A DNA stretch of 64,000 nt, from contig JAHDYR010000062.1 of the NCBI GenBank assembly GCA_019828565.1, forward strand, positions 483,666 to 547,665, written 5' to 3'. This document shows, piece by piece, positions 2,755 to 37,733 of this stretch. A program made the translations under genes and the position numbers. Below the pieces are notes generated by a model. It worked only from the letters and a program-made list of their open reading frames with translations. It made no database searches and was not told the DNA's origin. Numbering within the stretch: position 1 is the stretch's first letter; each line of letters opens with the position of its first letter. This DNA comes from Carpediemonas membranifera BICM (Eukaryota > Protista > Fornicata).

Positions 2755-2775
2755 GTATCGATATTGCCGATTCAA

Positions 2776-7516: not shown

Positions 7517-7542
7517 TCATGCGACACGCATTGGGAGGGAAG

Positions 7543-10228: not shown

Positions 10229-11257
10229 ATGATCCTCGAATGCTTTCTCTGCAGCGCCGTTGTGCAACATTGGGCTCCGACATCCAAAAATCTGCGATCG
10301 TCACGCGTAGCGCCGGGCAACAGGAGGCGCAAGAGGCTTGTGCGCCGTCCCGTGTGTCACTCCGAGCCCGCTTCGTCGGTAGACGAGACCTCGAACGATG
10401 ACAGCGAAGAAGACGAATCACCGACTTCTTCGGACGATGCCCCGGGGAATGACAGCTCCCCAACGCTGCCAGACGGCCAGCCCGAAGCCAACCAGCCTGC
10501 TGACGTGACTACTACGGTTCGCCAGCTCTCCCACGCCTCAGGAACGGACGTTTCGGACTTGAACCGGCTGGTCCATCGGCTGTTGGGCGAGCACGCCCAT
10601 TCGATTGCTCTAACACTCACTCCGCTTATGAATTCTCTCCGTGAACAGCGGTTCGAGCGTGAGTTCTCCCTCGAAGACGTCGAACGCCAACTTAAGGGTG
10701 TTTCTTGTGCGCGTCGCGTGTTGCTCGATCTTCAGGCCTTCATGAAACTTGCCCAGGCACTACCTGAACTGGACCTGCATCGCGCCGCCACTTGGCACCA
10801 TGAGATGGACGCTATCCGACGCAAGCTCCCTGGTAGGGGTGACAAGTCCCTCTGCCACCTCCTGGCCTTAGCCGTCTTCCCGGGAGTCTATGGTTTGCTT
10901 CAAGAGGCTTGCTACCGGTCCTCTGATATACCGGAGATGGAGAAGCGATTCCGCTTGGTCATGCGGGTATTCAAAGCCCATCCACAGTGGGTACCGGTAC
11001 TCATGACTACGGGCGACGGAGGGCTCCAGTTCACTGATGAGCTCCGTACTTATCGACTGGAACGAGTTGTTGGCAGTCGCAATGGCCCGGGTAGTCGACT
11101 CCTCACGTTGAAATGGGAAGACTACAGGTTTGTGACACGGTCGTACCCGACGCCGGAGTTGCTAGAATTGCCTGAAGTGGTTGCGCACCTTGCTCGTCAC
11201 GGGGTTGAACCGCGCAGTACTGGACCTGCCTTCGCTGGTCGGGGCCGCCGACTCTAA
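10229..11257 (+). CDS. Gypsy-2 antisense accessory ORF with C-terminal chromodomain-like segment; true start probably near 10135 via a frameshift
   Basis: 342-codon open frame with an acidic linker, helical core and YRLERVVGSR...LLTLKWEDY...SYPTPELL. Converges on the pol stop at 11301. Confidence 0.65.
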   Translation: MILECFLCSAVVQHWAPTSKNLRSSRVAPGNRRRKRLVRRPVCHSEPASSVDETSNDDSEEDESPTSSDDAPGNDSSPTLPDGQPEANQPADVTTTVRQLSHASGTDVSDLNRLVHRLLGEHAHSIALTLTPLMNSLREQRFEREFSLEDVERQLKGVSCARRVLLDLQAFMKLAQALPELDLHRAATWHHEMDAIRRKLPGRGDKSLCHLLALAVFPGVYGLLQEACYRSSDIPEMEKRFRLVMRVFKAHPQWVPVLMTTGDGGLQFTDELRTYRLERVVGSRNGPGSRLLTLKWEDYRFVTRSYPTPELLELPEVVAHLARHGVEPRSTGPAFAGRGRRL

Positions 11258-11300
11258 CAACTAATCAACAATAAATCAGGCGAGATGAGAATAGGAGGGT

Positions 11301-14300
11301 TTACAACCCTTCCGACTTGGCCTGAGCAGACGACAAGAAGTCATTCAGAGCAGCAGCGTCTCTAAGGGAGCGGTATGGCTCCCAGGTAGCCTCGGAGTCT
11401 TCAAATCCTTGCCAATGGACAAGGTACTCTCTCTTTGAGACCGAGCCCGAGCCACGCGACTTGGATATCCGGTCGATATACCACTCCTCCACGCCGGCGG
11501 CCGCCACCTGCTTGATCTGTTCCTCTGATAGGGTGCCGGGGACGAACTTTCTGACGCGAGACGCATCGACCCGGATGGGTTCCGCTCCGGGCTGACCTAA
11601 GTCTTTCACCATGTAGGCTACTACAACACCGCTCTGCTTGACAGACGACACTCGTCGCATAGGCCCTCTCCAGCCCGGGGAAAGCTTGTTTGGAGGGCGC
11701 GAGGGATATTTCACGAGCACAAACCGTGACAAGATCTCCGTGCGGGTGGTGGAGGCATTCGCCAACGCGTCTTCGCGCATGGCCAGGACACGTGCCTTGG
11801 CCAATTGTGTAGCGGCTTCGGCAGCGAGGAGATGCGACGTACGAGCTGCTGCCGTGCTGTTCTCGGTAACGTATAACTTCTCCGGCACCGCCATGTTGCT
11901 CCCGAACAGTATCTCGGCGGGGGAAAGGCGTGTTGGTTGTCTTGGCATGGAATTGACAATAAACTGCGCAACCGGTAAATGCTGACGCCAATTGCCGTTT
12001 CTGAGCTCAAACTTCCTTGCCTTGAGCACTCTCTCGACCATCTGGTTAGCTCTCTCAACCATTCCGTTGGACTGAGGGTGATGCGCGGTGGTAACGTGTG
12101 TCTCGAATCCCATGTCCTGTGCCAGCTTCTTCATGAGAGCATTATTGAACTCGGGACCTCCGTCAGACTGCAGCACTCGTGGGCAACCGTAACGCAGCAC
12201 CCATGTGTTGACGAAGGCATCCACGGCATCGCGTGCGGTGGTAGACTTGACGGGGGCTAGCTCCGTCCACCTGGAACACATGTCTATCATGACTTGGACG
12301 TATTTGTAGCCGTCACGCTCCGGGAGCGGACCTAGAGTATCGATTGCCACCCGCTGGAACGGTGCATCCACAGCCGTGTGTAGACCGTCTGTTTTTTTCA
12401 ACAGGCGGTCTCTCCAAGACCTGGCAGACAGGGCACTTGGCGACGTAGTCGTAAACGTCACGGCGAGTAACTGAGACACCGGCTTCCCGCAAACGTTCCA
12501 TGGTTAACCGTCCGGAGAGGTGGGCGTTACCGAACAGGTGGGCTTTGCTGATCTCATCAACTGACGCTAGCGAGAATACGCGCGACAGACCGTCGGCTCC
12601 CCCGTTGTCTAAAACCGGCCACGTGCTTCAATTCGAAATCTAGGTCTGCAATAGAATCGGCCCATCTACGCACCTTAGCGTTACTCGACCTATACATGTA
12701 CAAGAGGTTGCGATGGTCGGTGAGGAGCTCGAATCTCTCCCAGGACAAGAACTTCCTCCACTTCTGAAGGGCTGACACAATCGCAAAGGCTTCCTTCTCG
12801 CCGACACTCCATCTGGATTGGACGTCTGTGAAGGCTTTGGACATATAACACACGGGGCGACCCTCCTGCAGGAGGACAGCCCCGTACCCCACGTCGGATG
12901 CGTCAGTCATCACGACATGAGGTTTGGTCGCGTCGAACATCGCCAAAGAATCTGCCGAGCACAAGGCTTCTTTGATATCCGCTAGGGCAGCCTCTAGCTC
13001 TTTCTCTGGCACGGCCGTACGGTTAGTCGTTGCAGACACGAGTGGTTTGGCGCGGGTCGCGTAGTTCGGTACGAAGTCGCGGAAGTAGTTAAAGAATCCG
13101 ACTAGACCTTGCATCCCCTTGACTGTAGGCGACAGCTTCATGTCTTGGATATCGTTGACTCTCTCTGGTGAGATCCTGACTGACCCCTCGGAAATGATCC
13201 AGCCGAGGAACTCCACCTCGGCCCGACCGAACTGACACTTGTCCCTTCCGAGCTGGAGCTTGTACTCACGGGCGCGCTGGAGGACCTTCCTCAGGTTCTC
13301 GATGTATTCCTCAGGCGTGGCACCCATGACGATCACGTCGTCGATGTAAATGATGCAGGCGGTCCCAAGTAGCCCTCTGAACGCGTTTTCCATCGCTCTC
13401 TGAAAGAAAGCACCGGCATTGCGAAGCCCAAAGGGCATCCGTGTATATTGGAACTGGCCGAAGGTAGTCCTGAACGCGGTATACTTCCGGCAACGCTCAG
13501 TAAGGGCGATCTGGTGGTAGCCGGCAGACAGATCGAGCGTTGCGAACACTCGCTTACCCGAAAGTTGTGTGATAACTTCGTCAATTCGAGGGATGGGGTA
13601 ATCAAATGGCTCTGTCATGGTGTTGACTTCACGAAAGTCGACGACAAAGCGAGTCTTGCCACCCTTCTTGGGTACGATGATAGTTGGGCTGGAATAGGCC
13701 GATTGACACGCCTGTATATACCTCTTGGCCAGAAGGGTATCGATGTGTTCCTTGACAACCGGGACCTTTGGGGGCGGAACATAGTAGGGACGTACGTGGA
13801 CGACTCGATCGCCCTTGAGGCATAGGTCGTAGGGCTCGAGCTTGCTCGGTTCAGTACGGTCACGGAAGAGGTCTTCGTACTCCTTGAGCAGCTTGATCTG
13901 CTGGCTCGCGATACCATCGGGGAGGGTAAGAGCCTTAGCTTCAAACTTGCTCGGGACGGGAGGATCGTCAGTTGCTTCGCTCTCCGAGTTGCTAGGCTGG
14001 GCCATTGAGGGCAGCAGTCCGATCTCTACCATCTGGCTGTAACCAAAACTGACTTCGTACGCAGTTTTGAGAACGAAAGCGCGAATCTTCAGCTCGCAGC
14101 CACGTGGCGTGAAGGGAGATGGCCTCAACGTGATCTGCACCGATACGGCGCCTTCAGCTTCTCGTATTCCACCTGCCGTTTGGATGCGTACAGTATCGTG
14201 GTTGATCCTGGTAACGGCTGGCGAGGAGCACAGATCGGGAGATATCGTGGCACAGTCAGCACCAGAGTCTAGTAAGACCTTCACTTCGGCCTTCTCGATG

Positions 14301-15340
14301 ACTCCATTGACTACAGGCAACGACCCTCCACCTGACGCAGCGGAAAATAAACACTTCGCCCCGTTTACTGGGGACTTAAAACGGCAGAACTTCTCGAGGT
14401 GACCCTGCTTCTTGCAAACCGGGCATGTGGCACGATCCCGCGGGCACTTGAAGGATGGATGGCCCGTCTCGCCGCAGTTGTAGCACACCAGCTCGCGCTT
14501 GCCCTCTCCTCGTTGGTTCGGGGCTCTTGCGGCTGGCTTATCCTGATGATGAGGCTTGGCGATTGGCTTGGGGGCGGGATGGGTGGGTTCGTGGTGAAGA
14601 CCGCGATGGGGTTTGCCCGACTTAGCCTTGGTTGACGACTGCTTGTCGGTCATTCCGATGGAACGCAGCATGGCACGAGATTCCTCGATATCGCGAGCGA
14701 TATCAATCACCCGCGGCATAGCCTGTTCGAGGGAGAAGCCTTCGGTGAGATCCTTAACCTTGTACTGAACGCGCGAATTATCGGGTAGCTTAAAGCAACG
14801 CGCGTAGGTGTCGCAGAGGATCTCAGAGTCTACCCCGGGATCAACAAGGGAGAGGAGGGTTCTGAACCGTCGGTTCACTCGAACCACCTCCTGCGGAGTA
14901 AAGGACGAGATGGAGAGACGGAACAAGTCGAGACGGGCAGAAAAACGGGACGGTTGCAGTGCTCTACCGAGCCGCTTGAGGACGCGGTCGTCTTTAGCGA
15001 GACGCTTGGCCTTGCGCTTACGCTTGTGCGTCTTTCGGACAGCTGCGGTTAGGATGAGGGACTGCTGGAGGGGTTGCTCGTCGTCTTTAGGCGTTCCGGC
15101 TACTGGTGAACCTTCATCGTTCACGGGGACAGAGGCCTCAGCCGAGGGGATGGCTTCAGAGGCCTTGGCGAAGAGGTTAAAGCCGAGAGCGTCAGCGTAC
15201 CGTTGGACTTCGGTGTCAATCATGTCGGCAACGTCGGCATCACCGCCTTTGGCTCGGTACTCGGACAAATCCTCGGCGAATCGGACTAACGACTCAATGG
15301 TCGTCTTCTTTAGCATAGGCATATTGTTATAGAGCGTCAT
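11301..15340 (-). CDS. Gypsy-2 Gag-Pol: two CCHC knuckles, protease, RT, RNase H, integrase, chromodomain; frameshifts in homopolymers near 12613 and 12395
   Basis: CYNCGETGHPSFKC, CPVCKKQGHLEKFC; LDSGA; LDLSAGYHQ, MPFGL, YIDD; TDASD, TDHRNL; CPVCQ; IDTLGP, SDGG, NGMVE; WYIDRI...EYLVHWQGF...TWEP. Confidence 0.95.
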
Positions 15341-15361
15341 CAAAACGTGGAATACTAGTAT

Positions 15362-15485
15362 TGTGGTTCGTTTGACGAACTATGTTTACAGGGGAGAAGA
15401 CTCGACACAATGGTGTCGAGGAGAAACTCCTTGACTAACTAATATCATATATAAATCTGTGTAATCTTGGGTGAGACCCATGACA
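15362..15485 (-). repeat. Gypsy-2 5' LTR (124 bp)
   Basis: Identical to 9448-9571; the gag ATG follows 21 nt downstream. Confidence 0.95.
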
Positions 15486-16704
15486 TCTCGGCAGCTATCC
15501 CGGACGAGCCCAGAGCCAACACAGTCAATGTCCCAGGCATCACGTATGTCCCCACCATCGACGGAAAGTCCGAACAGCCATACCAAAGTAGGTTCTTCGA
15601 CAACGGCCTGGAGGAAAAGGCGAGGCGGATTAGCACCAGGATGGTGGGCAGGCACTTCGGCCAGGACGCGGATCAAGGACATCACGACCAGCATGGAGAC
15701 AGGGAAGAGGACAGAAGGGTAGGACACGGAGCCGGCGGTAGAGCTGGTGTCAGAGCTGACGACAGAACCGGCGACAGAGCTGGTAACATGAACAGGACCT
15801 CGGATCGTAACCACGGAGGAGACGACAGGGAGAGACAGGACAACACGGGAACGCAGATGAGAGGCTCGTTCAGCGGGAACACCTGGGCCGGTAGAGGCTC
15901 AGAGGGAGGCATGGACAACAGCAAGGATCACTCTTCCTCCACGACGCTCAAGCGCAAGGAGGGCAGCACGAGTAGGATCATGGACTCGGACAGCGGAAAG
16001 AGAAGCAGGTACGAAGAGGACACGGACTGGGAGTCTGGAAGCAGACAGGCAACCGGCATGGACTCGGAGAAGCTGCGGCTCCGAAAGCAGTTGGCAGAGG
16101 CGCAACAAGAGATCTCAGCGCTCAAGGCTGCCCGACTCATGCAAGAGCAAGGCCACGGAAGGTTGGTGCTCTCCGGCGTCGCGACTAAGCCCAGCAAGGA
16201 GAAGCCCACGATCCCCCGGCACAAGCACAAGAAGGCTAAGAAGGCCAAGCAGATCTCACCCATGGACCTGATGACCCAGTTCATCATGGTAATGCAGAGT
16301 CTACAAGGACAGCAAGCGAGTCAGGCCGAGGACAGCTGCAGCGGCAGTGGGGAGTCCACGGAGGAGGAGTAAGGACATGGTAAAGCAGTATTCTTTCAAG
16401 GAACAAGCAACATTTTCTTTATAATTCACAAGCCCTGGCTCCCACCCAGGGCCCGGCATTAGCTGAAATGCACTGCCGGTAGGCTGTAGCGGCAGCCAAA
16501 GGGGGGGTCACGTCATATCGTCCCCCTCCTAAGTACCCTGCCCGAAGAATGGAAGGTCACCAGGAGGTAACAAGGTTGGCCTGACAAGGGTCACCGAGAC
16601 CGGCATCTAGGCCCCTTGTTAGGACAAGGATAGCAGGAGAGGAGCGGGAAGCTGGGGCTCCCAAATTCTGGGAATTCGCAGGATAAGGAACCAGGACAAA
16701 GGCA

Positions 16705-18150
16705 ATGGTAACCTACAAGATACTTAGTCTGAACACAGAGGGACACATAGGAAGAGGAAAGGACTTCACGGCGTCTATGGCAACGGCGATTCAGCTAAGG
16801 TTGAAGGACATAGAGGCAGTACTCATACAAGAGACATGGAGAACGGCGAATACGAGGGTTCATTGCTTCATGGACCTTGACTACGCACTAGCAGGGAGGG
16901 AGACGGAAGAGGACCTGGTCTTAGCCAACGAAAAACGAAAGGCGGATGTCAAAAGTCAGCACCGCATCAACCGACAACTAGGCATAGCAGGCAATGACGA
17001 ACCTGCGCCAAGATGGAAGGGAACAAGGGAAGGCATCGGCACGATAGTGAGCCCACACGCAACTGCAAAGTGGGACATCGGCATAACGGACAGCCTATCG
17101 GGAAGAGTGCAAGCCAGCATAATGAGAACCGGCAGGGACATACTAGTCATCAACGTGTATGGCCCTCCATCCGGCCACAGCAAGCAGGAGAAGGATGGAT
17201 TCAGGGACACTATACAGAAGATCATGGACATGAAAGGGAGCATGGAGGCCATAATTATGGGAGACTGGAACATCGACCCAGGCCAGATGGAAAGATCCAC
17301 CCGGTGGAAGGATATGATGGAGAAGCACAGGCTCAAAGCCATCATACCCAAGTCTGGGACGCTCACATCAGGAACATCAACCCCGGACTTTGCAGTGACA
17401 ACACCAGGAATCCAGGGGGCGGAGATTGAGGTGGTAGAGTCTCAGAAGGTCGGGGTATGGGGCTCAGCACACAATGGAATCACACTAGCATGGAAGGAAC
17501 AACGGTACTATGGCAGAAGTGAGCGAGACGTGGCTCTGGCCATACCCGAGGTGCACACCTGGCCCATGAAAAAGAAGGAGGGGCCAGTCACAGTCTCAAA
17601 GCTGAACAGGATCAAGAGCTCGGACCAATGGGAAGAGACTATAAGAGCATGCATGGGCGACCCAGTGAACAACAGGGGAGCAAAGGCAAGGGACAAAGTG
17701 TTCGGGAACGGAGTGTGGAGCGAACTCCAGCGAACCCCATGGACAGAAATAGGCAACAGGACCAGGAAGGAAAGGATGAAAGAGGAGCTGGAGAAATACT
17801 GGGGAGAGCGCAGGGCCAAATGGATGGCCGACCTCAGCAGAAGTGCAAAAGGGGGGTATAGGGCCTCAAGGGCCTCAGTGGAAGCTGCCATCAGAAGGTG
17901 GTGGTGTGATAACCAATACAAGGGAATGCCGGAGAGCCTCCTCAAGGACGGAGTGATAACCACGGACAAGGCGGCCATCAGCGAGATCCTCTTGCAACAG
18001 TATGCTAGAGTCAGCAGAGGCAGGGAACCCACCTGGAAGACATGGAGGGGCAGGGACGGAAATGAGTTCAAGGAAAGCGAGGTCAAAGCCGCAATCACGG
18101 CAGGACTACGGGAACTGGCAAAGGTTTACAACAGCTTCAAGGTGGAATAG
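16705..18150 (+). pseudogene. LINE A ORF2: APE endonuclease intact, RT removed by an internal deletion after 18097
   Basis: LSLNTEG, LIQET, INVYGP, IMGDWN, TPDFA, SAHNGI. Near-identical to LINE C up to VKAAI (18097), then jumps to a terminus resembling the end of LINE B ORF2. Confidence 0.88.
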
Positions 18151-19068
18151 AAGCATGTCATGAATCCCTGACTCCAGGACCGGGAAGGGATGGACAAGGA
18201 ATCAGCCATGGACCACCCTCGCTGGGTGCTAAGCTCCTGGGATCAGTGAGGAAAGGCCCCACGTATCCCGGTAGCCAGGAACCAAAAGCAAGGGAAGGAA
18301 CGACTGCAAGGAAAGAACAGGAAGGACAGACCAGAAATAAGAAAGAAAGGACATGCGACAAGGACAGAGCAAGGATAAGGTCAAGGAAATCCATATTCAT
18401 ATGGTTGCACCACTCGTTGGGACCCCAAGGAAACTGCAGGGACTGGCCACGGGGGTCGGAGGGGCACAGGTGCCCCTGCCGCCCTTGTTAACGACATGGG
18501 AAACCAAGGACATGTAGTGCAAGCGAAATGTTGTAAGGGGTAACAGGACAACCAGGCCTAGTGCCTGGGGGTACACCACCCATGCCCTGACCCACGCCAC
18601 CTAACCGGGGTAGACAGCATGGACTTAGTCACTTTCCCCGCCTTCGGGTAGGCTTCTTAACAGAGTCGAGGGGGCATGGAATTGGGGAACCGGACAGACG
18701 AGAGGGTGCCGTGGCTGAACGGCTCTACAAGGACTGCAGGGAAGCAAGGAGTGTCATAGTCAAGGTTCTGCAGGACGATCCTGCCTGTCAACGCCCCGAG
18801 GACAGACCCCCAGGCTCCCCGGATAGTTGCCGGACCTTCAGGGAGACAGGAAAGCATATTTGCACGGAGATGGCCGCAGGGCTTCTGGGGCGATTGGAAT
18901 CGGCTTTCCGCGGAGACAGTAGCACCGAAAGCCCAAGGCAAACGCTGCTGACCAGTTTGCCACGGGAAATAGGCAGTACCCCGGGGCACTCAGCTCCAAG
19001 ACAACGGGAAACAAGCTCAGTCCGGGGTCAGAATCCAAGCACCATAAATTTCTTTCTTTCTTTCTTTC

Positions 19069-21967: not shown

Positions 21968-22987
21968 GAAAGAAAGAAAGAAATTTAACGTATCCTGTAC
22001 ACCTGTGTAAATCAGGGAATTACCAGTTTGCACCACCCCATGTCCCCGGGAACGCCTTAGCGTGTTGACTTCCCTTCGTGAGCGAGCCTGAGACTACGTT
22101 GGGGGCGTTAGCACCATCACCGTCAGGGTCCAGCTGGTAAGGCTGGGTAGTCCCTTGCATGTTGACCTATCAACTGGCTGGCCCGATACCCCCAAAGTCG
22201 GGATAACCCAGGTCTTACTCTTGGGGGTCCTTCGGGCCCCCGTTCTGCCTGGCACCCGCAAGGCCTTGCCCTGCACACCCGCCACCGGGGCCTTCTGCTC
22301 GGTTTCCCCCTACAGGGCTCCTCTCAGGGATATGTTCTCCATACCATTCGACCCAGTTTGCAATTTTTCAGGCACCCGCCGAAGCGGTTTCGGGCTTGGC
22401 GTTTGCCGTACCACGCAATTGGGCCAGTTATGAAACCCACCGATCATCGCTGGGTAGCTATATGATTCACGGCTGCGTTCGGGCTCTTCCACACTTTCCG
22501 TTCCGGCATGGATCCCCTCCTCAAGGATTTGTTCCCTTTAGGGCTTCTTCCTAGCTTCCGGCTGGTTCCAAGTTTTGGGTGCCGGGCCGTTCGGCGCAGC
22601 TCTGTTTTGGTCCAGGTGCCGCCCAGGTGGTATTGTTGCCTTATGGTTACCCTCCTGTTTGGCTGCTGCGCCCCGATACCTCGCACGTACGTGTATACAT
22701 GTGCATACGTGCCCCGCCCTATGGCTCTGGGTTGTTTCTTATACGTGTGAAGAGTGTGCCGGTTCTGCCGGCTGAATGTTGTCTACGTTCCCAGTATGGG
22801 TGAGCGTTTGTGTGTTAGTGAGATTAGTGTTCGGGGTTGAGTCCCCCTTCCGCGGCTGGGTGCTACCGGGATACGTGGGGCTTGCGTCCCCCGCTGATCC
22901 CAGGAGCGCTCCGCTTCGGTTGAGGCGTGGTGTTGGGTCCCAGCTTGACCCTGGTCCCAGAGGTCATAGGATTCTGGGATGGTGTAC

Positions 22988-25900
22988 TTACCCGTCTTTC
23001 CGGAGGTTCAGAAGGGCACGTCTGCCGTTCTGCAGTCCCTCTCTGACGGTATGGTCCTCGCTGCGGAGGAGCCAGAGCATTTCCAGGATTGCCCTTGAGT
23101 TGTACCACTCCGCCTCCTGCCCTTGCCTTAGGGCGTGGTACTGTGTGCGTAGATGCGCCTCCGCCAGGATGTCATTCCATCCTTCTGGGCGTTCTACCGC
23201 CTTGCATTGGCAGATGATGTGGCTTTGTGTTCCCAGGGGCTGGTTGTATGCCCATTCTGAGAGGATTTTTGGTGGTTTCCGCTGCGGTTCTGGTGACAGT
23301 GTACAGGCGAGTAATGGTGTCACCTTCTGAGTCCAGGGTACATAGGGGGCAACACCGCTTGATCCTGCTCAGGAGGGCCTGGGGCTGGCCGATCGCGCTC
23401 CCAAGTATGGCTCTGCTTCTGCCACTGTTGCTGGGGGAGGGGAGTGTGTTGGATGCAGTCATGATTACTCTCTTGACTTCCCGTCTGGTTATCATCTCAC
23501 CCTTGATCATTCCTGGTTTCTTGGGTCTCTTCCCTTGCTGCATGCTGAGGATGACTTCCGGGGCTAGTACTGTTGCCACCCCTTTGGCCGTTCGGCTCCC
23601 GGTGTGCAGTAGTTCTTCTGCTGTGAGGGTCCAGCCTCCCCTCTTTGCTCTTTTCCCTGGCGGGCATCTCCTCCTGTGTGCCCTGGAGGACGCTCCGTCG
23701 CCATTGGTAGAGGCGATGTAAGACCGATCCTCTCTCCGCTGTCGCCCAGTCCAGATTCCCTAGGGGGGTCGGACGGTCCGGGTCGTGCGCAGACTCATAG
23801 AGCCTCACCGCTCTCTGCCCCATATCTGCCTCCCAGCACATCCATCCCATTAGTACACGGGCGGCTCCTCCTCCCCCTGGTCCTGTGCCTGCCATTAGGC
23901 CGCGCCAGTTGTTCCAGATGGCTCTTCCCCCTGAGCGCTTGGCCCCAGATCTCGATCCCGAACTCGATCTTGGGCCAGAGGAAGGTTCTGAGGATGGATT
24001 CCGAGGTGGCGGCCGGGGTGGATCCTTTGGTCCACCCTGCTCTCCTGCCAGGGCTAGGTATTTCCGGGATTGTGACGTCTTCATTTTGATGCATGCTGCC
24101 AACGGATTCTTCCCGCTGGCTAGCCAGAGTCCCAGATACCTTGCTGAGTCTGACGCCAGTGTGGGGAGTTCCTTGGATGCTGACCGCTGCAGTTACGTCG
24201 GTACTTATCACCACACTTTTGCCTGGGCTGGTCTGGAGTCCATGGGCTTCAATTACCCTGACCACTGCGTCTGTGCCTTCTTCGGCGAGCTGCGGGGTCT
24301 CGGCTGAGATGCTTGTATCATCTACAAACATTGCAATGAGGCAGTTTTTGGGCCTATCGTCCGTTGGAGGGAGGCCGGGGTCCGGGATCTCTCTATGCCG
24401 GAGGTACAGTGCCGCCTGGCTTAGCCAGTTAGCTGTGAAGAGAATGAACAGAGTGGGGGCCACCACACATCCTTGCTTGACCCCCATGTTTGTTCTGGAC
24501 CATGTGCTTGCCCCTCGTACCGAGATGTACGTTTCTGTAAGTGTATTTCGGATGGCCCTCGTCAGTCTTGGGTGTACCCCCATGAGCGTCAACTTGTTCA
24601 CCAGCAGGTCCCTTGGGACCGTATCATATGCTTTTGCTATGTCAAGTAGGACGCTGGTACGGTTTCCGGACTGGTGGAGTTGGGCTAGGAGGGCTATGTG
24701 ATCCACTACAGTTTTCCCTTTCATGAACCCAACTTGCTCTCTGGGGATGAACTTCTCCACCGTCGGCCTGAGGCGCCATTTCAGTATCCTCCCGTAGGCT
24801 CTGTATAGGAGGGGGTGAGGGAGATCGGTCTGTACGAGCTGGGCGTGAGCTTGTCCTTCCCAACCTTGTGGATAGGCGACACCGCTGCATACTTCCATGT
24901 GGTTGGCATGGTCCCGCTGTCGTATACTTTCGCGAGCAGGACTGTGATTGCCTCGTACGCTGACTCGGGGAGGTCCCTCAGACAATCTCCAATAATCCCG
25001 TCCGGGCCTCCGGCCGAGGACTTCCTTATGGACTTGACCGCAGCTGTCACTTCTTCAAGCGATGGCGGATGGTCCTCCATGTCCGTTTCCGGCTCGGTTT
25101 CCCAGGTGGGTTCCTTCCCGGAGCTTACCTTCGCGTACTGCTCCTGGAGGGAGTCTGCAATCTCCCTCTGCCTTGCTAGAATCTTGTTTCCAGCCTTCAG
25201 CATCACCGGGAGACCGGCGTGCTGCTTCTCGTTCCAGAAGCGGAACACTTGGTTTGCGAGGATCCTTTTTGTCGTTTTGTACCCATCACGGGATCCAACC
25301 TCAACCTGCTCATTCCAGTCATGTTGGAAGGTCCTCCATGATCTGCTCAGCGCTCCGTTGAGGGACTTTTTTGATATCTTTGGCGGCGGTTTTGCTCCAG
25401 GTGGAGGCTTTGGCCAGCCGTTCCCATACCTCACTAGGGATACGTTCCTGGTTTTCTACAGCGAATGGGTGCCTTCTGGAGGTAGCAAACCCGGTGGACA
25501 ACCATTTCCTTATGAGAGTCTCCATCTCGTCCACTGGTATTTTGCTGTCTAGTGGTGGCCACTCTTCTAGCTTGGGCCCTGTTCTCCTGGGTTTGACCAG
25601 CCACGTATCGATCCGTGGGATTTCCAGTCTCTTTGATATCTCTGGTTTCCCTGTCGGGTTGCTATCCCAGGTGAGCTCTATGGCTTTGTGTGCCGACCCC
25701 CAATGCCCGATTGTGGTCTTGTCTATTACCCTAACAACCGGGTTTTGGATACCCCCTGTTACCGCTGCATAGTCTATTGTGGACGTTCGGGAGTTAGTCC
25801 CGTACGTCGGTGCAGTTGGTGCTATTGGGGTGAGGTTCCATCGCTGGAGGGTCATCGCAGTTGCTTGCCTGAGTTTCCCTGGCCTCCTGTTCCAGTCCCC

Positions 25901-26350
25901 GATGATGATGATGTCACACCCCTCATAGTTCGCGACTGTTTGCTCTAGCATCCGGTCGAACTCCTCAATCTCGGGTCGTGCACATCCACTATCGGGAGCG
26001 TAGATATTGATGACTGCCGTGGTCCTCGATGCTTTGAGGATGCTTACTTGGATTCGTGGGTTCGTCCCGTCGGACACGCCTACGTCCCATTCCGCTTTGG
26101 AGTGCGGGCTAATCAGTGTGGCCAGTCCCTTTGTGGGTCGCTTGCGCGTTGCCTCTAATGGCTTGACCTCTCCTGCACAGGCGTACTGGAGATCTACCCA
26201 GCAAGGGATGGTGGTATTACCGTACCGCTTGGTTTCCTGGAGGAGGATCGCATCAGTCCTTATCCTCTTGCGGATGGATAAAGCTATGGATCCGCTGTAA
26301 TCGTTTGCGCCCGCTAGGTGCCCTTCGCTGTTTAGCGATATTATTCTCAT
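22988..26350 (-). CDS. LINE B ORF2: APE endonuclease, reverse transcriptase and C-terminal Cys/His finger; several frameshifts
   Basis: ISLNSEG, LLQET, INIYAP, IGDWN, TIDY, SAH; AGGPDGI, YRPISLT, QVGF, LDIAKAYDTV, GVKQGCVVAPTLF, MFVDD; CPLC...SHIICQC. Confidence 0.9.
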
Positions 26351-26924
26351 TCAGGTTGTTCTGACATAAACTGCGGGAGTTACCCTGCGCGCACTAATCT
26401 GCTCTTTGTAGACATTCCCTTTTTGGGCGTACCTTTTGGTGGGTTGCTGAGGCCTCTAACTGAGCAGTCGTTTCCTTTTGGGCAGGCTTGTGCCTGTATT
26501 CCCTTAGTTCCCGGCCTAGGGCATACCATTCCCTTTCACAGTCGGGGCCTCACGATGCTTGTCGGCATTGCTGCCGGTCTCCGCTTAGCTTCCTTCCTCG
26601 CCGCATGGCAGGACCATTTCCTAACGAGCTTAGGTGGGAGCGACAGTGGTTGTTGCCCCTCCCAAGGCTGGAGTTACAGCCTGCCGGACAGGCAGGGCTC
26701 TTTTTACCTTTTGGTAACCCTGCCCCCGGCCCCTGTGGGGCACAGGGGTTTGTTGAAAAAGAGAATGTGTTGCATTATTGCTCCCGCCGGAATGGTTCGC
26801 CGGTGTCCATTTGGACTTTAAGGCCCTACTAGTCACAGCCTGGCCATATATGCTGGTTCATATATATACTTTTAGCTCAGACTTATATCACACTACCCTC
26901 TGCACCTCTTACTTATGATTGTTT

Positions 26925-29900
26925 CTACTCTCCTTCCTTCTCCTCGTCTCTCTTCCTTCTCAGGTCAGACCTGAAGTTATCCATCTTGGCTGCTAGGGTG
27001 AAGCTGAGGGCTTCGTTGGTTGCCGAGAGTCGGGCCGCGCGGCTGAGTAAGTCCTCGTTCTCTTCGGTTAGAGACGAGCACTTCTCCGTTGTCTTCCTGA
27101 GGTCCTTCCGCATCTCGTCCAACGCAGCTTGGGCTGCTCTCCGGGCTTCCCGTTCTTCCTCCAGCTCCTGGCTTTTGGCCTTGAGCTCGTTGATGGTTCT
27201 GGCTGCAGCTTCTTCCAGCTGTTGTCTGACCTCTGCTTCTCGCCGAGCCATGGCTTGGTCCAGCAGGGCCGCTATGCCTCTGCCCAGGTCGGTGTCCTCC
27301 TGTCGTGCTCTTTTGGGCTGCAGGTCCTCTTGGTCCACCTGTCTGACCTGGCGGGTCTTGGCTGATGGGTTGGGGGTATGGGGGGGGCACAGCTCTTAGT
27401 TGGAGGGGGCCCGGGCTCTGTTCGCTCTGTCCTGCTACTTTGCGGTTGTTCAGTGACAATTTGCCCGCGTGGAGGGCCATATAGGCCCCCTATGCCGCCA
27501 TTCGGCAGGTAGACCTCCGTCCTCCTGTGGAGCATCTTGGCGAGTTCAGTAGCCCTTCGTCTCACCTTTGTTCGAAGCGCCTGCTTCCTCTCGGTCCTCA
27601 GTCTGTTCTTGGCGTTAGTGCTGGCGCCTTCCGGGAAAACACAGTTCAGCGTGTCCCATGGCTTCCCCCCTTTTGGGTGTTCCACGCCTGAGCCCGCCAG
27701 GGCGAGTTTGCCTATCCAGGAGGCGCTCCTCAAGGAGCCTACTCGCTTCTTCCCTCTTTCTGCTGGTTCGTCCGTGATACCCCAGTCCCGGGGGAGGAAC
27801 GAGGGGAGGAAGTTGATGGAGCCTGTCTCCGGGTCGACACACATGTTGGCCAGGAGTTCTCGGTCGTCGGCTGGGACCTCCGTGAAGTAGTTGAAGATCT
27901 TCTTCCTGGCTTCTCTGCCCATGTGGCCTCCAGCTATGTCGAATTTGTGGACGGGCATCAAAGACGCCGCTTGGGATAGGGTCATCGTTTTGGTGTCGCT
28001 GACGTCTAGAGTAAGCATCTTTTCCGCGTCTATTTCCGTGGGCTCCCCCCTCAGGTTCGCCCAAGGGAAACCGTCTTGGACAGCGCGGCTGCGCCCGTTC
28101 CACTCCGAGTGGATTTCCAGGAGGATAGGTCGCGCTGGTTCGCCTACTCTCGCGAGCGATTCTGGGTTTCCGATGATCACGGCTGTTCCTTCCAGGGCTC
28201 TGGTGATACCCTTTCCGGAGCTGAAATCGTTTTCCTCCCAGTTTGTCATGATAATCTGGTCCCGTTTGGGGTTCTTGGTGCCAAAGAGGTTGACTTGTTG
28301 GGACAATGGGGTTAGGCGACCGGCCGCCACGGTGCCGAGGCCGTGTCTGGCGTTGACTTTGGTCGCCAGGTCCTTGTATTGATCATGGTACGGCGACTCC
28401 CTGCCCATGAGCATGCTTCCTAGGGCTGTGAGGTGGGCTTCTACCTGCCCCCAGTCCCAGCCTGGGTTGTCTCTCATCCAGAACGCTGTTGCTAGTCTGG
28501 CGTAGAATATGGAGACATCTGCTAGGGCGCAGTGGCAGTGGTGGGGTGCGTACTTGTGATAGGGGCACACCACTTTTGCCTCCGGGCGCTGTTGGTACCT
28601 TCTGGTCCAGGTCCGGCCCAGTTCGGACTGGGGTCGGGAGGGGAGGCCGGTGAGGCTCTTCTCCCCACTATTGGGGGTAGAACCAGGTCAGCGTGTCGAG
28701 GATGTTGGGGAAGATCGTGTTGAGGTCAGTTTCATCCATGAGGCGTAAGCTTAGCCAGGTGCGGAGGTTCCCGTCTGGAACGAACTTCTCACTGGTCAAG
28801 ATGCTTCTCTCAGCCTCGACTCCCTTAGCCACGATGTGGACGTGGGTCTTCTGTGGCCCCGAGTCGTCTTCCAGTCTCTTCAGCTCTGTTGCCATCTCGG
28901 TGCACCATCGCTTGGCGTGGGGGAAGTCTGCTTCGTATCCCTTGGGGGCTTTGCCCGTGGTGACGTCGACAAACGTAGCTGGTGGGCAGCCATGGATGTA
29001 GTGCGTGGCCCACAGACATTGGTCCAGAGCATCCACTGTGATGTCCTCCCCAAGCATCCCGTGCATGTAGTAGAGGATTTGCTCGTTAGCTGGGTCGAAA
29101 ATCAGTGCCGCCCCTTCGCAAATGATGGCCTCGTCTCCTTGGTTGGATCTGGCTCTTCCTTCCTCAAAGTCCACCATAGCGATCAACTGCCTGGTGGTGT
29201 TGGCTCGTTGGGTGATATTGGAACGAGGCGGGCTAGCTCCCATGCTGGGCCCGCATGTGCCCTTGTTTGGCGTGGTAGGTGTGTCATCAGGGCCGGAAGT
29301 CCTGCTGCCGCTCGGGCCCAGGGGGGTTTCTTCTTCGTTAGTACCCAGGGCTCCATGAGATGCCCCGTCCCGTACGGGCTCTACAACTTGGGTCTGCCCC
29401 GTTGTGAGCCAGTAGTTAGTGATGTTGCGCGTCAGAAAGGAGGCAGACACCAGTTCGCGGGCAATCCTCGCGGGTGGGGGCCAGAGACGCCTGGTCTTAT
29501 CCCATGCCGACCAGAGTTCGGGGAAGCCGGGGACTGACCACCGTTGGATGAGGTCTCTGACCTCCTCCCTCAGGTCTGCCTCTGCTGCAGAAGGCTCTTC
29601 TTCCAGGGGTGGGGGTGGGAAGACTGGCCTCATCACACCCTCGGTTCTGCTGTAGATGAGGATCTCCTCGACGGGGCCCTGGGTCCAGATCTGGATGGGC
29701 GTGCCGTCTGGTCTGCGGAAACCTCCCTCCGGGGGGTGAGGGGCGTGGTAGCCTTGCCCTTTGGCTAGTTCCCGGCCTAGGTCGGCCCAGAGCTTCTTGT
29801 TTTCGCGTCCTAGTGAGGGGGAGCCCTCTGGCTGCAGCTCCCGCGGAGATGGCGTGTCCGGCGGCATGGAGGAGCCACATTGCAGCCTCCATCCCGTACT

Positions 29901-30774
29901 TGGTCTGGATGCCGTTGCCTGAGATCGAAGAATGTCCTGCAGCTTGCAGCGATGTTGCCACGAGCTCTAGGAGGAGCGTCCTTGCGACCTTTCCCGTTCG
30001 GGCAGTGAAGTCCGTTGCGTCATCTCTGGTGAAGACCATGGCAACGTCCCTTGTGGGAATTGCCGCATCTGCTGAGGCTCTGATGCAGTCCCATTCGTCC
30101 GGTGTGGCCAGTTGCTTGCCCAGTGGCGTTAACGACTCCTTGATCCCATTTGGGGTGGTGTTTGCGCAATCCAAGGCGTCTGGGACGCTTTGGAAGCTGT
30201 TCGAGGTCATTGTGTGGCGTGGTCTCGAAAAGTCCCGGTTATGGATTCGGCCGAGATCAAGGCCCTCCTCCACGGGGAGAAGTGATGGGGTGTGTCGCTC
30301 ACTAGCTGGTGCCGTCTGGCTCGTCTGGTGGGGATGTGCTACGTACTTGGAGTAGTCCGCCTGGACTCTGGGGTAGAACACAAATTTGGGGGACCCTGGG
30401 CGAAGCCGGCTTAGTGTCTCTGCCTGCTCTAGGTCCAGCCGGTTCCCTTCAATGAATAGCCAGTATGGCTGTTGGGCGGCTTTTGTGTACCGTCTCAGGA
30501 GAGGAAGTGATGCAAACAGCTTCTTGGCCCGGCTTTTCCGGAGCTCCCCTGGGCCTTCCTTTGCTGTAAAGCTTCCCTGTTCTGGGTCTACAATCTTGTC
30601 GTATCCTATCGCGTTGCCGAGCTGGATAATGGACGTATTTGCTTTTTCCCTTCTGGTTTTCCTGAGATCCCTTCTGGGTGCAGCCTTAAGGGCGAATAAG
30701 CCATAAATCATGCTTTCTTCCCTATCTGGCATGTCCCTGTTGGGATATTCCCCTGTTTCCATTTGGAGTGGCAA
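26925..30774 (-). CDS. LINE B ORF1 (~1250 aa reconstructed) with MAEL/arenavirus-NP-like DEDDh exonuclease domain and C-terminal coiled coil; start uncertain
   Basis: Overlapping frames 29497-30774, 28668-29867, 27272-28573 and 26925-27338. Removing one base from the G5 run at 28673-28677 joins WFYP to NSGEK...VVCPYH. Homologous to LINE A ORF1 along its length. Confidence 0.8.
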
Positions 30775-32737
30775 AAGGCGGGAAGTGCACTTTTGCCAGC
30801 TTCTTGGAGGGGCTTGAGGAGGTTTGGTGGAGGTTCCAAGGGGCGCCAGCCAGCGATGTCCTGGTCTTGTATGGCTCCTTTCCCTTCCTCAGGGCGGATG
30901 GTTCAGGGGCGAGGTATGCGAGGTTTGTTGCGGACCTTGTTTCCACACAAAACATGTCTGGCGAAAACCCAAAAGGGAACCTTATTGCAGGGACAGAGAG
31001 CATCGCCCCACACGGGGCTGCTGTCCCTTATTCCCCATGCGTCCGTTCCATCTCTCCTTCCACCTTCACGCCTCCTCCTGGCCATTCGGCCGGCGCCTCC
31101 GCTGCCCAGCGGTCCCCAGAGGGGGAGGTGCATTACCAGGGGTTATGCACTCCGATCCCTATCGATTCCTTGGCCCGAGTACGGCCTGGACTCCGATTTC
31201 GGGGGCGCCGCCTCTTTCCCGGGAAGCAGGGCCCTCTTCGCACTCCGACGGGGGATCCCGTATTCCCCTCCGGCCCCAGGGTAGTCCCTTGCCTTGTGGC
31301 GGCAGGGGCTTCACCCCTCCTTCTCGGGAGTCCCCGACTCCTGGCCCGGCGACTCCTCGGGGTTGGGAGGCGCATTTCCTGCGGTCCATAGCTGACGATT
31401 TTGCCCAGGTGGACGTCCTGGCCAGCCGGTGGCGGGAGCGTGCCGCTGCCTTTTCCTACCTGGCTCAGAATTACCGTGACGAGGACCTGAGTCCCCACGA
31501 GTCTAAGTCGGCTCGGGGTTTCGACGCTGAGCTGAGGGGCCAAATGCGGGTCTATAGGCGCCTTCGTGCTCGCATAGACGCCCGGCTGCACCAGCTGGTT
31601 GCCATTCACGCCCCTCGTCCTGTATCTTGTGGTCGCAGCCCGGTTGTTTCCTTCCTGGTAAACACCGTGATGGTTTATGCCTTTTGGCTTCGGCTGGGCG
31701 TTTCTTGTGGGGCTGTGGACGGGGCCCTCAGCGCTCCCGGTCTGTTGTCCGGTATGGCTGGTGTACTGGGGGCCTGTTGTGGTGGCCCTGTTGCCTATAC
31801 CGGCGGCGGGCGGTGATCCCGGCTCTCGTGGCGATGACGTCCACAAGCCCGGTCTTGGGCGGCATGAGAGCACGGGCGCCGGAGTAGTGTGGCCCAGTGG
31901 CCTCCCAGTGAGAGCCTATTGGCCGCCGGTCCCGGTGCTCTCGGGTTACTTTGCCATATGGCCCCAGTTAAGTTGTCTGAGGCAATCGTGTCGCAGTGCC
32001 TCTGGGGCCTACTGCGGGTACCGGTTACGGTAAGGGTTTCAATCATAAAGGTGGCGCAGTACGCTTGTTCGCGTTGATTTCCCTTGTGGGTTTGTGCGAG
32101 GAGCGTTTAGTTGCGACTGGTCCCCTTGTGGGTCCCAGGAGCATGGGCGGTAGGTTTTGTTTGTTGTTAGAGTACTGTGTATTCTGTCAACGCTTTCCTA
32201 CCGAGGCTAACTTATTCCCTTTTGGGTGGTTTTTGCCTCTGTGCATTTTTGGGCACACGAGGACGATCATCTATTGCTCGACATAGCTTGGCGCACGGCG
32301 AGGTATACAGGGCAGGGGAGTGGGCTCCAGGTGGGGTGCGCACCCCACCTGGAGCAGCCAGTTGTCCTCTGCCGGCCCGCTCTGGCGCTAACCTGCTTCG
32401 CAACGGGCGATCTCCTCCGGGGAGCAATTTGCTTCCCCAATGTGCCCTATGGCTAGTGGGTTAGGAGAATACTTCCCATTTCTGCTCTCGTGCCCCAGAG
32501 CAGACGAACTCTTGGTCCTGAAATTACCATTTGGTGGATGCTGGCGCCGCGGGGCACCGTCGCTCGCTTCGAGCTCGAATAGCTTTCAATGAGATCCGAT
32601 AAATCCCGATTGCCAGCTTTTGGCCTTTTTCCGGTTGGTTTCGTCAACTTCCCATACCGGACATTTCAACTAGCGGCGCAGACGTACTGGCACGGCGCCT
32701 TGTTATTGCTCGAGGCCGTGGTGATGACGCAGTGCAC

Positions 32738-33694: not shown

Positions 33695-36477
33695 ATAATC
33701 CAGTAGCGCTGGTTTAGGGGCTCCCTCTCTGGTGCCCTCCAGTAGATGCTGCACTCTCTCCCTAGCTTCCCACATAACCGTGCCCCGCCCCCATTCTCTG
33801 TTTCTGACTGGTATATCCTGGTCCCTGTAGTTGACTATCCTTTTGACTGCCAGCCATTCCATGTGTGCCTGGAGGTCCACCCATCCATTCATCAGCCTCA
33901 TGGCTGCGCCCCCTCCCGGTCCTGTTCCTGCCATGATTCCCTGCCAGTCATTCCAGATCCTTCTACCTCCCGGTGCGTTCCCCCACACCTCGACTCCGAA
34001 GAGGATCCTGGGCCATATATATTTCCAGTAGTAGCCTGCTTGCTAGTGCTGGCATGTTTGCCCTGGTCCACCCTGCCCATCTCACCAGTCTCTTGTACCT
34101 TTCGCTCTGCTCCTGTTTCCGCCTTATGCAGGCCGACATAGGGTCCTTCCCACTTGCGATCCATAATCCCAGGTATCTCGCCTCCTTCTCTGGCAGTAGT
34201 GTTACCCCCTCGATCCTGACTAGGGCTGTTCTGTCCACGCTAATCATTACATTCTTCTGGGCGTTCACCCTCATTTCATGCTCTCTGATTATGTCCACCA
34301 TTATGTTGGCGACCATCTGGCTATGCTCCGGTTTGCTCCCTGTGACCGCAGTGTCATCCACAAACATGGTAAGTGCTGCCGGTAGTCGGTCGCTGAGGTG
34401 GCTCGTGGTCCTTGGCGGTTCTCTGATGTCGTACCGTTCTCCCTTGATTTTCTTTCTGGCCAGGTGGGGCCAGTTAGCCATGAACAGCACAAACAGTGTC
34501 GGTGCCAGGACGCACCCTTGCTTAACTCCCCTGTTGGTTCTTTCCCATGCCTTTTGCCCCCTTGACTGATATCCAGGTTTCCTTTATTGTGCCTTGAATT
34601 GCCCTGATCAAGTGCTCCTCCACCCCCATACCCTGTAGCTTATCCATGAGAATGTCCCTTGGTACCGTGTCATATGCCTTCTCGATGTCCAGAAAGATTG
34701 ACGTGGTCTCACCCCCCTCCTGGTGCCGCTGCACAATGTACTGTATCTGCTGGATGACGTCCCTGTCTGACTGGAAACCAGCCTGTTCTCTTGGTATGAA
34801 CCTTTTCGTTGCTGCTTCCAGACGTATCTTGAGCAATCTACCATAGACCCTGTATAGCAGTGGTGTCAAAGATATTGGTCTATATGATTCCGGCTTGACC
34901 CTTGGCTTCCCTGTCTTGTGTATGGCCGACACTGTGGCATACTTCCATGCTTTGGGTACGTCACCCTCCCTGTAGACCCTATTAATGAGCCTCGTCACTT
35001 CCCTAAGGCCTTTCTCATCCAGCTCTCTCAGCATGTCTCCAGATGTGAGGTCAGGCCCTGGTGCGGTGTCCCTCTTGATCCTTTTGATTGCGGCTTTGAC
35101 CTCGCTTTCCTTGAACTCATTTCCGTCCCTGCCCCTCCATGTCTTCCAGGTGGGTTCCCTGCCTCTGCTGACTCTAGCATACTGTTGCAAGAGGATCTCG
35201 CTGATGGCCGCCTTGTCCGTGGTTATCACTCCGTCCTTGAGGAGGCTCTCCGGCATTCCCTTGTATTGGTTATCACACCACCACCTTCTGATGGCAGCTT
35301 CCACTGAGGCCCTTGAGGCCCTATACCCCCTTTTGCACTTCTGCTGAGGTCGGCCACCCATTTGGCCCTGCGCTCTCCCCAGTATTTCTCCAGCTCCTCT
35401 TTCATCCTTTCCTTCCTGGTCCTGTTGCCTATTTCTGTCCATGGGGTTCGCTGGAGTTCGCTCCACACTCCGTTCCCGAACACTTTGTCCCTTGCCTTTG
35501 CTCCCCTGTTGTTCACTGGGTCGCCCATGCATGCTCTTATAGTCTCTTCCCATTGGTCCGAGCTCTTGATCCTGTTCAGCTTTGAGACTGTGACTGGCCC
35601 CTCCTTCTTTTTCATGGGCCAGGTGTGCACCTCGGGTATGGCCAGAGCCACGTCTCGCTCACTTCTGCCATAGTACCGTTGTTCCTTCCATGCTAGTGTG
35701 ATTCCATTGTGTGCTGAGCCCCATACCCCGACCTTCTGAGACTCTACCACCTCAATCTCCGCCCCCTGGATTCCTGGTGTTGTCACTGCAAAGTCCGGGG
35801 TTGATGTTCCTGATGTGAGCGTCCCAGATTTGGGTATGATGGCTTTGAGCCTGTGCTTCTCCATCATATCCTTCCACCGGGTGGATCTTTCCATCTGGCC
35901 TGGGTCGATATTCCAGTCTCCCATAATTATGGCCTCCATGCTCCCTTTCATGTCCATGATCTTCTGTATAGTGTCCCTGAATCCATCCTTCTCCTGCTTG
36001 CTGTGGCCGGATGGAGGGCCATACACGTTGATGACTAGTATGTCCCTGCCGGTTCTCATTATGCTGGCTTGCACTCTTCCCGATAGGCTGTCCGATATGC
36101 CGATGTCCCACTTTGCAGTTGCGTGTGGGCTCACTATCGTGCCGATGCCTTCCCTTGTTCCCTTCCATCTTGGCGCAGGTTCGTCATTGCCTGCTATGCC
36201 TAGTTGTCGGTTGATGCGGTGCTGACTTTTGACATCCGCCTTTCGTTTTTCGTTGGCTAAGACCAGGTCCTCTTCCGTCTCCCTCCCTGCTAGTGCGTAG
36301 TCAAGGTCCATGAAGCAATGAACCCTCGTATTCGCCGTTCTCCATGTCTCTTGTATGAGTACTGCCTCTATGTCCTTCAACCTTAGCTGAATCGCCGTTG
36401 CCATAGACGCCGTGAAGTCCTTTTCCTCTTCCTATGTGTCCCTCTGTGTTCAGACTAAGTATCTTGTAGGTTACCAT
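33695..36477 (-). pseudogene. LINE C ORF2 (APE plus RT), frameshifted and 3'-truncated
   Basis: TAPGPD, YRPISLTP, QAGF, FLDIEKAYDTV, GVKQGCVLAPTLF, MFVDD, RYLGLW. Confidence 0.9.
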
Positions 36478-37733
36478 TGCCTTTGTCCTGGTTCCTTATC
36501 CTGCGAATTCCCAGAATTTGGGGAGCCCCAGCTTCCCGCTCCTCTCCTGCTATCCTTGTCCTGACAAGGGGCCTAGATGCCGGTCTCGGTGACCCTTGTC
36601 AGGCCAACCTTGTTACCTCCTGGTGACCTTCCATTCTTCGGGCAGGGTACTTAGGAGGGGGACGATATGACGTGACCCCCCCTTTGGCTGCCGCTACAGC
36701 CTACCGGCAGTGCATTTCAGCTAATGCCGGGCCCTGGGTGGGAGCCAGGGCTTGTGAATTATAAAGAAAATGTTGCTTGTTCCTTGAAAGAATACTGCTT
36801 TACCATGTCCTTACTCCTCCTCCGTGGACTCCCCACTGCCGCTGCAGCTGTCCTCGGCCTGACTCGCTTGCTGTCCTTGTAGACTCTGCATTACCATGAT
36901 GAACTGGGTCATCAGGTCCATGGGTGAGATCTGCTTGGCCTTCTTATCCTTCTTGTGCTTGTGCCGGGGGATCGTGGGCTTCTCCTTGCTGGGCTTAGTC
37001 GCGGCGCCGGAGAGCACCAACCTTCCGTGGCCTTGCTCTTGCATGAGTCGGGCAGCCTTGAGCGCTGAGATCTCTTGTTGCGCCTCTGCCAACTGCTTTC
37101 GGAGCCGCAGCTTCTCCGAGTCCATGCCGGTTGCCTGTCTGCTTCCAGACTCCCAGTCCGTGTCCTCTTCGTGCCTGCTTCTCTTTCCGCTGTCCGAGTC
37201 CATGATCCTACTCGTGCTGCCCTCCTTGCGCTTGAGCGTCGTGGAGGAAGAGTGATCCTTGCTGTTGTCCATGCCTCCCTCTGAGCCTCTACCGGCCCAG
37301 GTGTTCCCGCTGAACGAGCCTCTCATCTGCGTTCCCGTGTTGTCCTGTCTCTCCCTGTCGTCTCCTCCGTGGTTACGATCCGAGGTCCTGTTCATGTTAC
37401 CAGCTCTGTCGCCGGTTCTGTCGTCAGCTCTGACACCAGCTCTACCGCCGGCTCCGTGTCCTACCCTTCTGTCCTCTTCCCTGTCTCCATGCTGGTCGTG
37501 ATGTCCTTGATCCGCGTCCTGGCCGAAGTGCCTGCCCACCATCCTGGTGCTAATCCGCCTCGCCTTTTCCTCCAGGCCGTTGTCGAAGAACCTACTTTGG
37601 TATGGCTGTTCGGACTTTCCGTCGATGGTGGGGACATACGTGATGCCTGGGACATTGACTGTGTTGGCTCTGGGCTCGTCCGGGATAGCTGCCGAGACTA
37701 GTCTGGCCCCTTCCTTGCGCATACGGCTTAGGA
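33695..37733 (-). mobile_element. LINE C: copy of the LINE A family, 5'-truncated and 3'-interrupted, retaining APE and RT
   Basis: Near-identical to LINE A 9408-9447 plus 15490-18097, without Gypsy-2. 5' junction with the 298-bp repeat at 37733/37734. Confidence 0.92.

Follow-up and report, generated by a model that had tools for sequence, protein, structure and literature searches.

Non-LTR retrotransposons of the locus

The window, a stretch of 64,000 nucleotides of the Carpediemonas membranifera BICM genome, contains copies of two LINE families, designated LINE A, LINE B, and LINE A' (Table 1). LINE B was recognized as a full-length APE-type non-LTR retrotransposon lying within a copy of a Sin3-like gene, a segment of which is duplicated as an 18-bp TSD (21951–21968 and 32672–32689). 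The assignment to APE-type LINEs is based on the order of the reading frames (ORF1, then ORF2 with an N-terminal APE endonuclease and a reverse transcriptase, RT), the TSD, the simple-repeat 3' tail, the occurrence of 5'-truncated copies, and the absence of LTRs. The LINE RT matched L1 RT and R2 RT, in either case weakly. No RNase H match was found in LINE B ORF2 by Pfam scan.

ORF1 of LINE B is composed of a conserved N-terminal region, a low-complexity linker, the MAEL-type domain, a second conserved region with the FLPRDWG end, and a C-terminal coiled coil. Its extent is supported by coding-like codon use from approximately 30760 to 26925 on the minus strand. The initial annotation had placed the domain in an ORF1 of ~1250 aa; the placement stands, and the length becomes ~1280 codons if the start is at 30762. 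About three frame breaks (near 29800, 28675, and 27400) interrupt ORF1 in this copy. The second conserved region (27700–28400, minus strand), which follows the MAEL-type domain in the homologues as well, ends with F-[IL]-P-R-[DE]-W-G, and neither this region nor the conserved N-terminal region had a match in Pfam. The model of a whole ORF1 protein (P0007) was poor (pLDDT 39), with a supported coiled coil at residues 935–1028. Coding-like codon use was also observed at 31133–31915 (minus strand), in the long 5' region of LINE B upstream of ORF1, and possibly reflects an extra ORF or a longer ORF1.

The 46-nt motif in the 3' UTR of LINE B has its counterpart at 18233–18275 (plus strand) in LINE A, the two families being otherwise diverged. 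This motif is a candidate recognition signal for ORF2p. A search of Rfam with positions 1–38000 of the window, the motif included, gave no match.

Table 1. Positions of the LINE features described in the text.
Feature	Position	Strand	Remarks
LINE A, second family	1435..19068	+	14-bp TSD 1421-1434 / 19069-19082; tail same as in LINE B
LINE A MAEL-type domain	8090..8770	+	first and last D at 8108 and 8730; with its own break of the frame, 8452-8454
LINE B, complete non-LTR retrotransposon of APE type, 10,703 bp	21969..32671	-	within Sin3-like gene copy; evidence from TSD, EN, RT, tail
LINE B 3' end, TAAAT + (TTTC)n	21969..21987	-	19 nt identical to LINE A
LINE B 3' UTR motif, 46 nt	22862..22907	-	85% identical to LINE A; predicted stem-loop
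LINE B ORF2	22988..26350	-	frame broken at several sites; encodes APE endonuclease, RT, and a C-terminal Cys/His region
LINE B ORF1, ~1280 codons, four frame pieces	26925..30762	-	start codon uncertain
MAEL-type DEDDh domain of LINE B ORF1 (predicted)	28480..29190	-	residues and homologue model
+1 frame break inside the LINE B domain	28670..28687	-	most likely located in the G5 run, 28673-28677
LINE A', copy of family A	33860..37733	-	5'-truncated downstream of the MAEL domain; EN and RT present; 3' limit approximate

Two Gypsy LTR elements (2688–7608, plus strand, and 9448–15485, minus strand) are inserted in ORF1 of LINE A. Both bear a chromodomain and have very short terminal repeats of 67 and 124 bp. 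A database protein, P0002, spans the first Gypsy interruption at 93–99% identity. At 18097–18200, LINE A passes directly from early ORF2 to the 3' UTR; the RT region has been lost internally, with both ends and the TSD retained. The RT of family A was taken from the LINE A' copy. LINEs A, B, and A' all lie within the 3' part of Sin3-like gene copies or within a 298-bp tandem array made from the 3' end of this gene. Sin3-like segments were located at 1279–1434, 19069–21968, 32672–32737, 37734–42665, and 59193–64000, and comprise at least two near-identical long gene copies. The 3' part of the gene is possibly an insertion hot spot or a preferred target of these LINEs.

The MAEL-type domain and its relatives

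The catalytic set of the LINE B domain consists of D11 (29171), E13 (29165), E131 (28811; Exo II), H223 (28534; predicted catalytic), and D228 (28519). Predicted zinc ligands are E29 (29117), C212 (28567), H215 (28558), and C224 (28531), and two extra histidines, H47 (29063) and H70 (28994), are present. The initial annotation had read a DEDDh layout from the minus strand, and its peptides were recovered in the translation; the first Asp (GAC, 29169–29171), the Glu next to it (GAG, 29163–29165), and the final Asp (GAT, 28517–28519) have exactly the coordinates it gave, as does the G5 run. It had left the third acid unnamed. This residue is E131, within A-K-G-x-x-x-E, and the layout becomes D-E-E-D-h. 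The peptides YYMHG and IHGCPP, matched by eye, contain the two extra histidines of the MAEL EHHCHC set. With them, all six residues of this set are present in LINE B, according to a by-eye mapping to the published alignment. A six-frame search of the window for C-x2-H-x7-H-C-x3-D, a pattern chosen post hoc after it had been seen, gave two occurrences, one per LINE family, with 0.003 expected from residue frequencies.

The frame of the N-terminal half of the LINE B domain reaches a stop at 28670 and that of the C-terminal half opens at 28687, which leaves a single +1 break. The two halves are considered one domain because intact homologues align on both sides of the break. Near-identical repeats within the window differed by three single-base indels per 2.6 kb and three per 4.1 kb, nearly all in homopolymers. 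An assembly error is a plausible cause of the break, with which this indel pattern fits without proving it; alternatively, the LINE B copy could be dead.

Relatives of the domain were collected by several searches. The word-based search gave two matches among 3352 candidates, both hypothetical proteins of Carpediemonas membranifera. HMMER with a profile of the N-terminal half against 1.84 billion representatives gave ten matches (five from C. membranifera, four further family members, and one repeat protein); the profile covered only 176 positions of this half and may miss distant relatives. The cluster look-up added P0013 and P0012, and the search for longer proteins added P0014–P0016. P0012 is a near-copy of P0010 and was left out of the counts; P0009 was dropped as a repeat protein. 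No homologue was found among 305 candidates in a separate search with the N-terminal half of the LINE B domain, or in a metagenome scan with the domain as the query. Overall, 13 further family proteins were obtained. Seven of them (P0002, P0003, P0005, P0006, P0008, P0013, and P0014) are labelled C. membranifera, and the other six are P0004, P0007, P0010, P0011, P0015, and P0016. All long homologues share one architecture, with the conserved N-terminal region, linker, MAEL-type domain, second conserved region, and coiled coil.

Pairwise identities in the family are mostly 25–45%, and the N-terminal halves of the LINE A and LINE B domains are ~34% identical. Residue conservation was counted over 16 sequences, some of them near-identical. 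The first Asp was present in 14 of 15 (Tyr in P0005), the following Glu in 15 of 15, and the Exo II Glu in 13 of 13. The Glu on beta2 was found in 15 of 15 sequences, the His on beta3 in 14 of 15, and the second His in 5 of 15; C, H, H, C, and D of the tail motif were each present in 12 of 12. From the catalytic set DEDHD, D, E, H, and D are therefore kept, and the third acid is Glu (DEED).

No nuclease match was obtained when the LINE B pieces, their read-through, or the homologues were scanned with Pfam, and none of the 12 aligned members matched the Pfam Maelstrom family (PF13017). PDB sequence searches gave no match for the domain. In the Atlas, the N-terminal half matched unnamed clusters with scores of 0.92–0.95, two of them mostly arthropod, and Maelstrom with 0.85, which is a lead only; the C-terminal half of the LINE A domain gave no usable match. 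The clusters at 0.92–0.95 possibly represent another uncharacterised DEDDh/MAEL-like family.

The metagenome scan for RTs revealed 58 loci, eight of which had at least 4.4 kb upstream of the RT. The domain was present in two of these eight (L001 and L002) and in none of the other 56 loci, six of which extend far enough upstream. L001 and L002 are LINEs free of frameshifts. Their ORF1 of at least 1074 aa carries the domain at residues 328–551 (E 8e-75) and is followed by a 1173-aa APE-RT frame. An identical sequence of 7499 nt gives way, after TAAAT(TTCA)n, to different Gypsy-like flanks in the two; identity together with different flanks indicates two insertions of a young family. The flank of L001 is a Gypsy gag related to the Gypsy elements of the window. 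In an RT tree of 22 rows, built without L002 (a duplicate) and without loci aligned over fewer than 120 residues, LINE B, LINE A', and L001 formed one clade with 99/99 support; the other rows were unnamed metagenome RTs. In agreement with the initial annotation, other full-length elements carry the domain as well, namely LINE A and L001/L002, along with ORF1-like database proteins. At least three distinct elements whose context is known have the domain within ORF1.

Predicted fold and structural neighbours

Structure prediction and structure searches were performed with the intact domain of P0013, which is 32% identical to the N-terminal half of the LINE B domain, using an alignment of 12 rows. 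The AlphaFold model (pLDDT 87.8, pTM 0.87) had a DEDDh fold, so that the RNase H-like fold expected from the initial annotation was predicted for this homologue. In the model, the D/E pair lies on beta1 and the next Glu on beta2. A short helix begins with the CPYH histidine, the two Cys are located in loops, and the final Asp belongs to the helix that follows. In Bombyx MAEL, E137, C290, H293, C302, and R306 occupy matching secondary elements (PMC4408791).

With Foldseek, DEDDh nucleases (3'hExo, TREX, and DnaQ) led, and Maelstrom ranked 48 by E-value (top listed TM-score 0.51); the viral matches were DEDDh exonucleases. VIA-align against 48,161 chains placed Maelstrom at ranks 1, 2, and 4 (Z 13.1, 12.7, and 12.3; rmsd 3.7–4.0; 193–199 residues aligned). 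DinG, ERI2, and 3'hExo had Z of 12.2–12.3 with 162–175 aligned residues, and other listed chains had up to 183 aligned residues. In a second structural comparison, Maelstrom occupied ranks 1–4 with Z up to 13.2. The lead of Maelstrom over DinG, ERI2, and 3'hExo is less than 1 Z and is regarded as a tie, the aligned length being longest for Maelstrom. Arenavirus NP reached Z 9.6 (rmsd 3.7, 156–157 residues aligned) and has ECHC and the DEDDh fold in common with the model. The earlier description as a Maelstrom/arenavirus-NP type of domain is thus retained as regards the DEDDh fold, with MAEL closer than arenavirus NP by Z and aligned length.

Judging from the residues and the model, the domain is very probably a MAEL-type DEDDh domain with a predicted ECHC zinc site. 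An orthologue of Maelstrom was rejected as an explanation: the HMG box had no match in the ORF1 proteins scanned, the catalytic residues are kept, and the domain is located in a repeat.

Proposed function and comparison with known systems

The domain is probably a catalytically active nuclease. Catalysis is suggested by the retention of the residues across 25–45% identity and by an Entamoeba MAEL that has both motifs and is active as an exoribonuclease. EhMael is a Mg/Mn-dependent ribonuclease (PMC4408791).

We tentatively propose that the MAEL-type domain of ORF1p would act as a 3'-5' exoribonuclease removing antisense, double-stranded, or small RNAs that trigger silencing. In LINE particles, the ORF1 protein is present in many copies and coats the RNA, so that a bulk task would fit it better than a task performed once per insertion; enzymes of the latter kind are placed in ORF2, unlike this domain. 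Arenavirus NP would be a parallel, as an RNA-coating protein that uses an ECHC exonuclease against host defence. Such a counter-silencing role appears to be the best explanation of the data, although we would rate it somewhat short of probable. An RNase within an RNA-coating protein would need substrate selectivity, and the missing Pfam Maelstrom match, the Glu at Exo II, the D-to-Y change in P0005, the tie of Maelstrom with other nucleases by Z, its low Foldseek rank, the use of a homologue for the model, and the broken frames of both window copies also weigh against it. Searches of the literature on C. membranifera, PMC8516963 included, gave nothing on Argonaute, Dicer, or other RNAi genes, and several free-living relatives among the diplomonads are without Dicer and Argonaute (PMC11437800).

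In the main rival reading, possible but rather unlikely, an active nuclease works in cis within the retrotransposition particle: it would shorten the element's own RNA from its 3' end down to the tetranucleotide tail priming reverse transcription, or would take over from RNase H the clearing of RNA or flaps at integration. Wherever the 3' end of an insertion is visible (A, B, L001, and L002), it consists of TAAAT with a short (TTTC)n or (TTCA)n and lacks poly(A); these four ends and the lack of an RNase H match in ORF2 would both fit action in cis. The fold neighbours ERI1/3'hExo and RNase T are trimmers of 3' ends, families A and B share the candidate stem-loop in the 3' UTR, and the same role was proposed for the DEDDy ORFs of bdelloids (PMC5408684). 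Nevertheless, one event per insertion needs no location in ORF1, and the UTR motif was not found in L001/L002. LINEs with repeat tails also retrotranspose without such a domain, which counts against trimming in cis.

A non-catalytic RNA-binding module replacing an RRM or a zinc knuckle would agree with the absence of RRM, CCHC, PHD, and esterase Pfam matches in any ORF1 scanned, with the Glu at Exo II, and with the binding of ssRNA without cleavage by Bombyx MAEL (PMC4408791). We consider it improbable: although the family members are only 25–45% identical, hardly any variation is seen in the His or in the residues that bind metal, which metazoan MAEL lost, and Exo II varies between D and E in nidoviral ExoN (PMC7968707) and is Glu in the DEED variant of bdelloid ORFs (PMC5408684). 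Action of an active nuclease against RNA or cDNA of competitors such as Gypsy, limitation of the element's own copy number, or proofreading for the RT is quite improbable. In the window, as in the two metagenome contigs, Gypsy elements and the LINEs form nested arrangements, and the DEDDh enzymes TREX1, a fold neighbour, and Plex9 restrict L1 (PMC10123124); yet self-limiting elements are expected to be outcompeted (PMC5408684), and the RT is encoded in a separate ORF with no physical link to the domain. Finally, a fragment of a host MAEL gene trapped amid insertions, or a motif arising by chance where the frame shifts, as a pile of nested insertions with two broken copies might suggest, is ruled out for practical purposes by the TSD-bounded placement in both families, the homologue alignments, in which every long homologue has the domain between like flanking regions, and the intact in-frame ORF1 of L001/L002 upstream of APE-RT.

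MAEL domains are known from a host anti-transposon pathway in animals, where they are inactive, from a few parasitic protists, where they are active, and from arenaviruses, where they serve immune evasion. The location in a LINE ORF1 puts a MAEL domain on the side of the transposon and gives the catalytic-type MAEL family a defined biological setting. If the counter-silencing role holds, these LINEs may have redirected at the host a domain otherwise employed in defence against transposons: their ORF1p, resembling arenavirus NP, would coat the RNA of the element and suppress RNA silencing by destroying its triggers. Catalytic MAEL domains may then have passed as a module between retroelements, RNA viruses, and hosts, and Maelstrom itself may descend from this mobile pool. 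We regard this broader scenario as doubtful at present. The intact and recently spread L001/L002 makes the ancestral MAEL function and LINE-encoded counter-silencing testable.

With the MAEL-type domain as a conserved part, the architecture of this ORF1 had no match in our searches. Literature searches, which covered few subscription papers or Repbase reports, found no report of LINEs with a MAEL or DEDDh domain, and no MAEL-type domain in a LINE is described in passages of PMC3985635, PMC10123124, and one preprint. The novelty claimed initially is upheld insofar as no earlier report of a MAEL domain in a LINE ORF1 was found in these searches, but exonucleases as such are not new to retroelements, since DEDDy enzymes have been described in LTR and Athena elements of bdelloids (PMC5408684). 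A paper on KolobokP also mentions DEDDh (PMC9587614).

Among known systems, the MAEL domains of metazoan Maelstrom (5af0, 9nhc, and 4ybg) were the best and longest structural matches (Z 12.3–13.2, 187–201 residues), with the four zinc ligands placed alike. The LINE domain differs from them in keeping the catalytic residues, in its low identity (10–12%), and in being encoded by a transposon instead of serving host defence. With the MAELs of Entamoeba (EhMael, EHI_192630) and trypanosomatids, it has DEDDh and ECHC in common. The Entamoeba row Eh_67476664, compared by eye in the supplement of PMC2628886, has the same C-x2-H-x7-H-C-x3-D spacing and a similar layout of D-F-E, P-x-E, the beta3 His, and H-G. 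In contrast to the protist MAELs, the LINE domain lies inside a LINE ORF1 and has Glu at Exo II, and sequence searches gave no link between them.

In arenavirus NP ExoN (4o6h and 3r3l), the nuclease is fused to an RNA-coating protein, as here, and the identity of 17–19% is the highest among the listed chains. The arenavirus NP exonuclease prefers dsRNA. Arenavirus ExoN, which also has the ECHC site, acts as a suppressor of innate signalling (PMC7968707). In bdelloids, DEDDy exonuclease ORFs are carried by Juno/Vesta LTR elements and Athena/Terminon elements, with a Cys-His-Cys set in Vesta2 and Vesta5 (PMC5408684). These enzymes are of DEDDy/RNase D type and encoded by a separate ORF3 in LTR or Penelope-like elements, whereas the domain described here is of DEDDh/MAEL type and fused into a LINE ORF1. 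In overall organization, LINE B and its relatives resemble the APE-type LINEs with an esterase ORF1 (CR1/L2/RTEX), with which they share two ORFs, APE and RT, a repeat tail, and an ORF1 combining an enzyme with a coiled coil; they differ in that the ORF1 enzyme is a predicted nuclease and ORF1 is longer, 1100–1280 aa.
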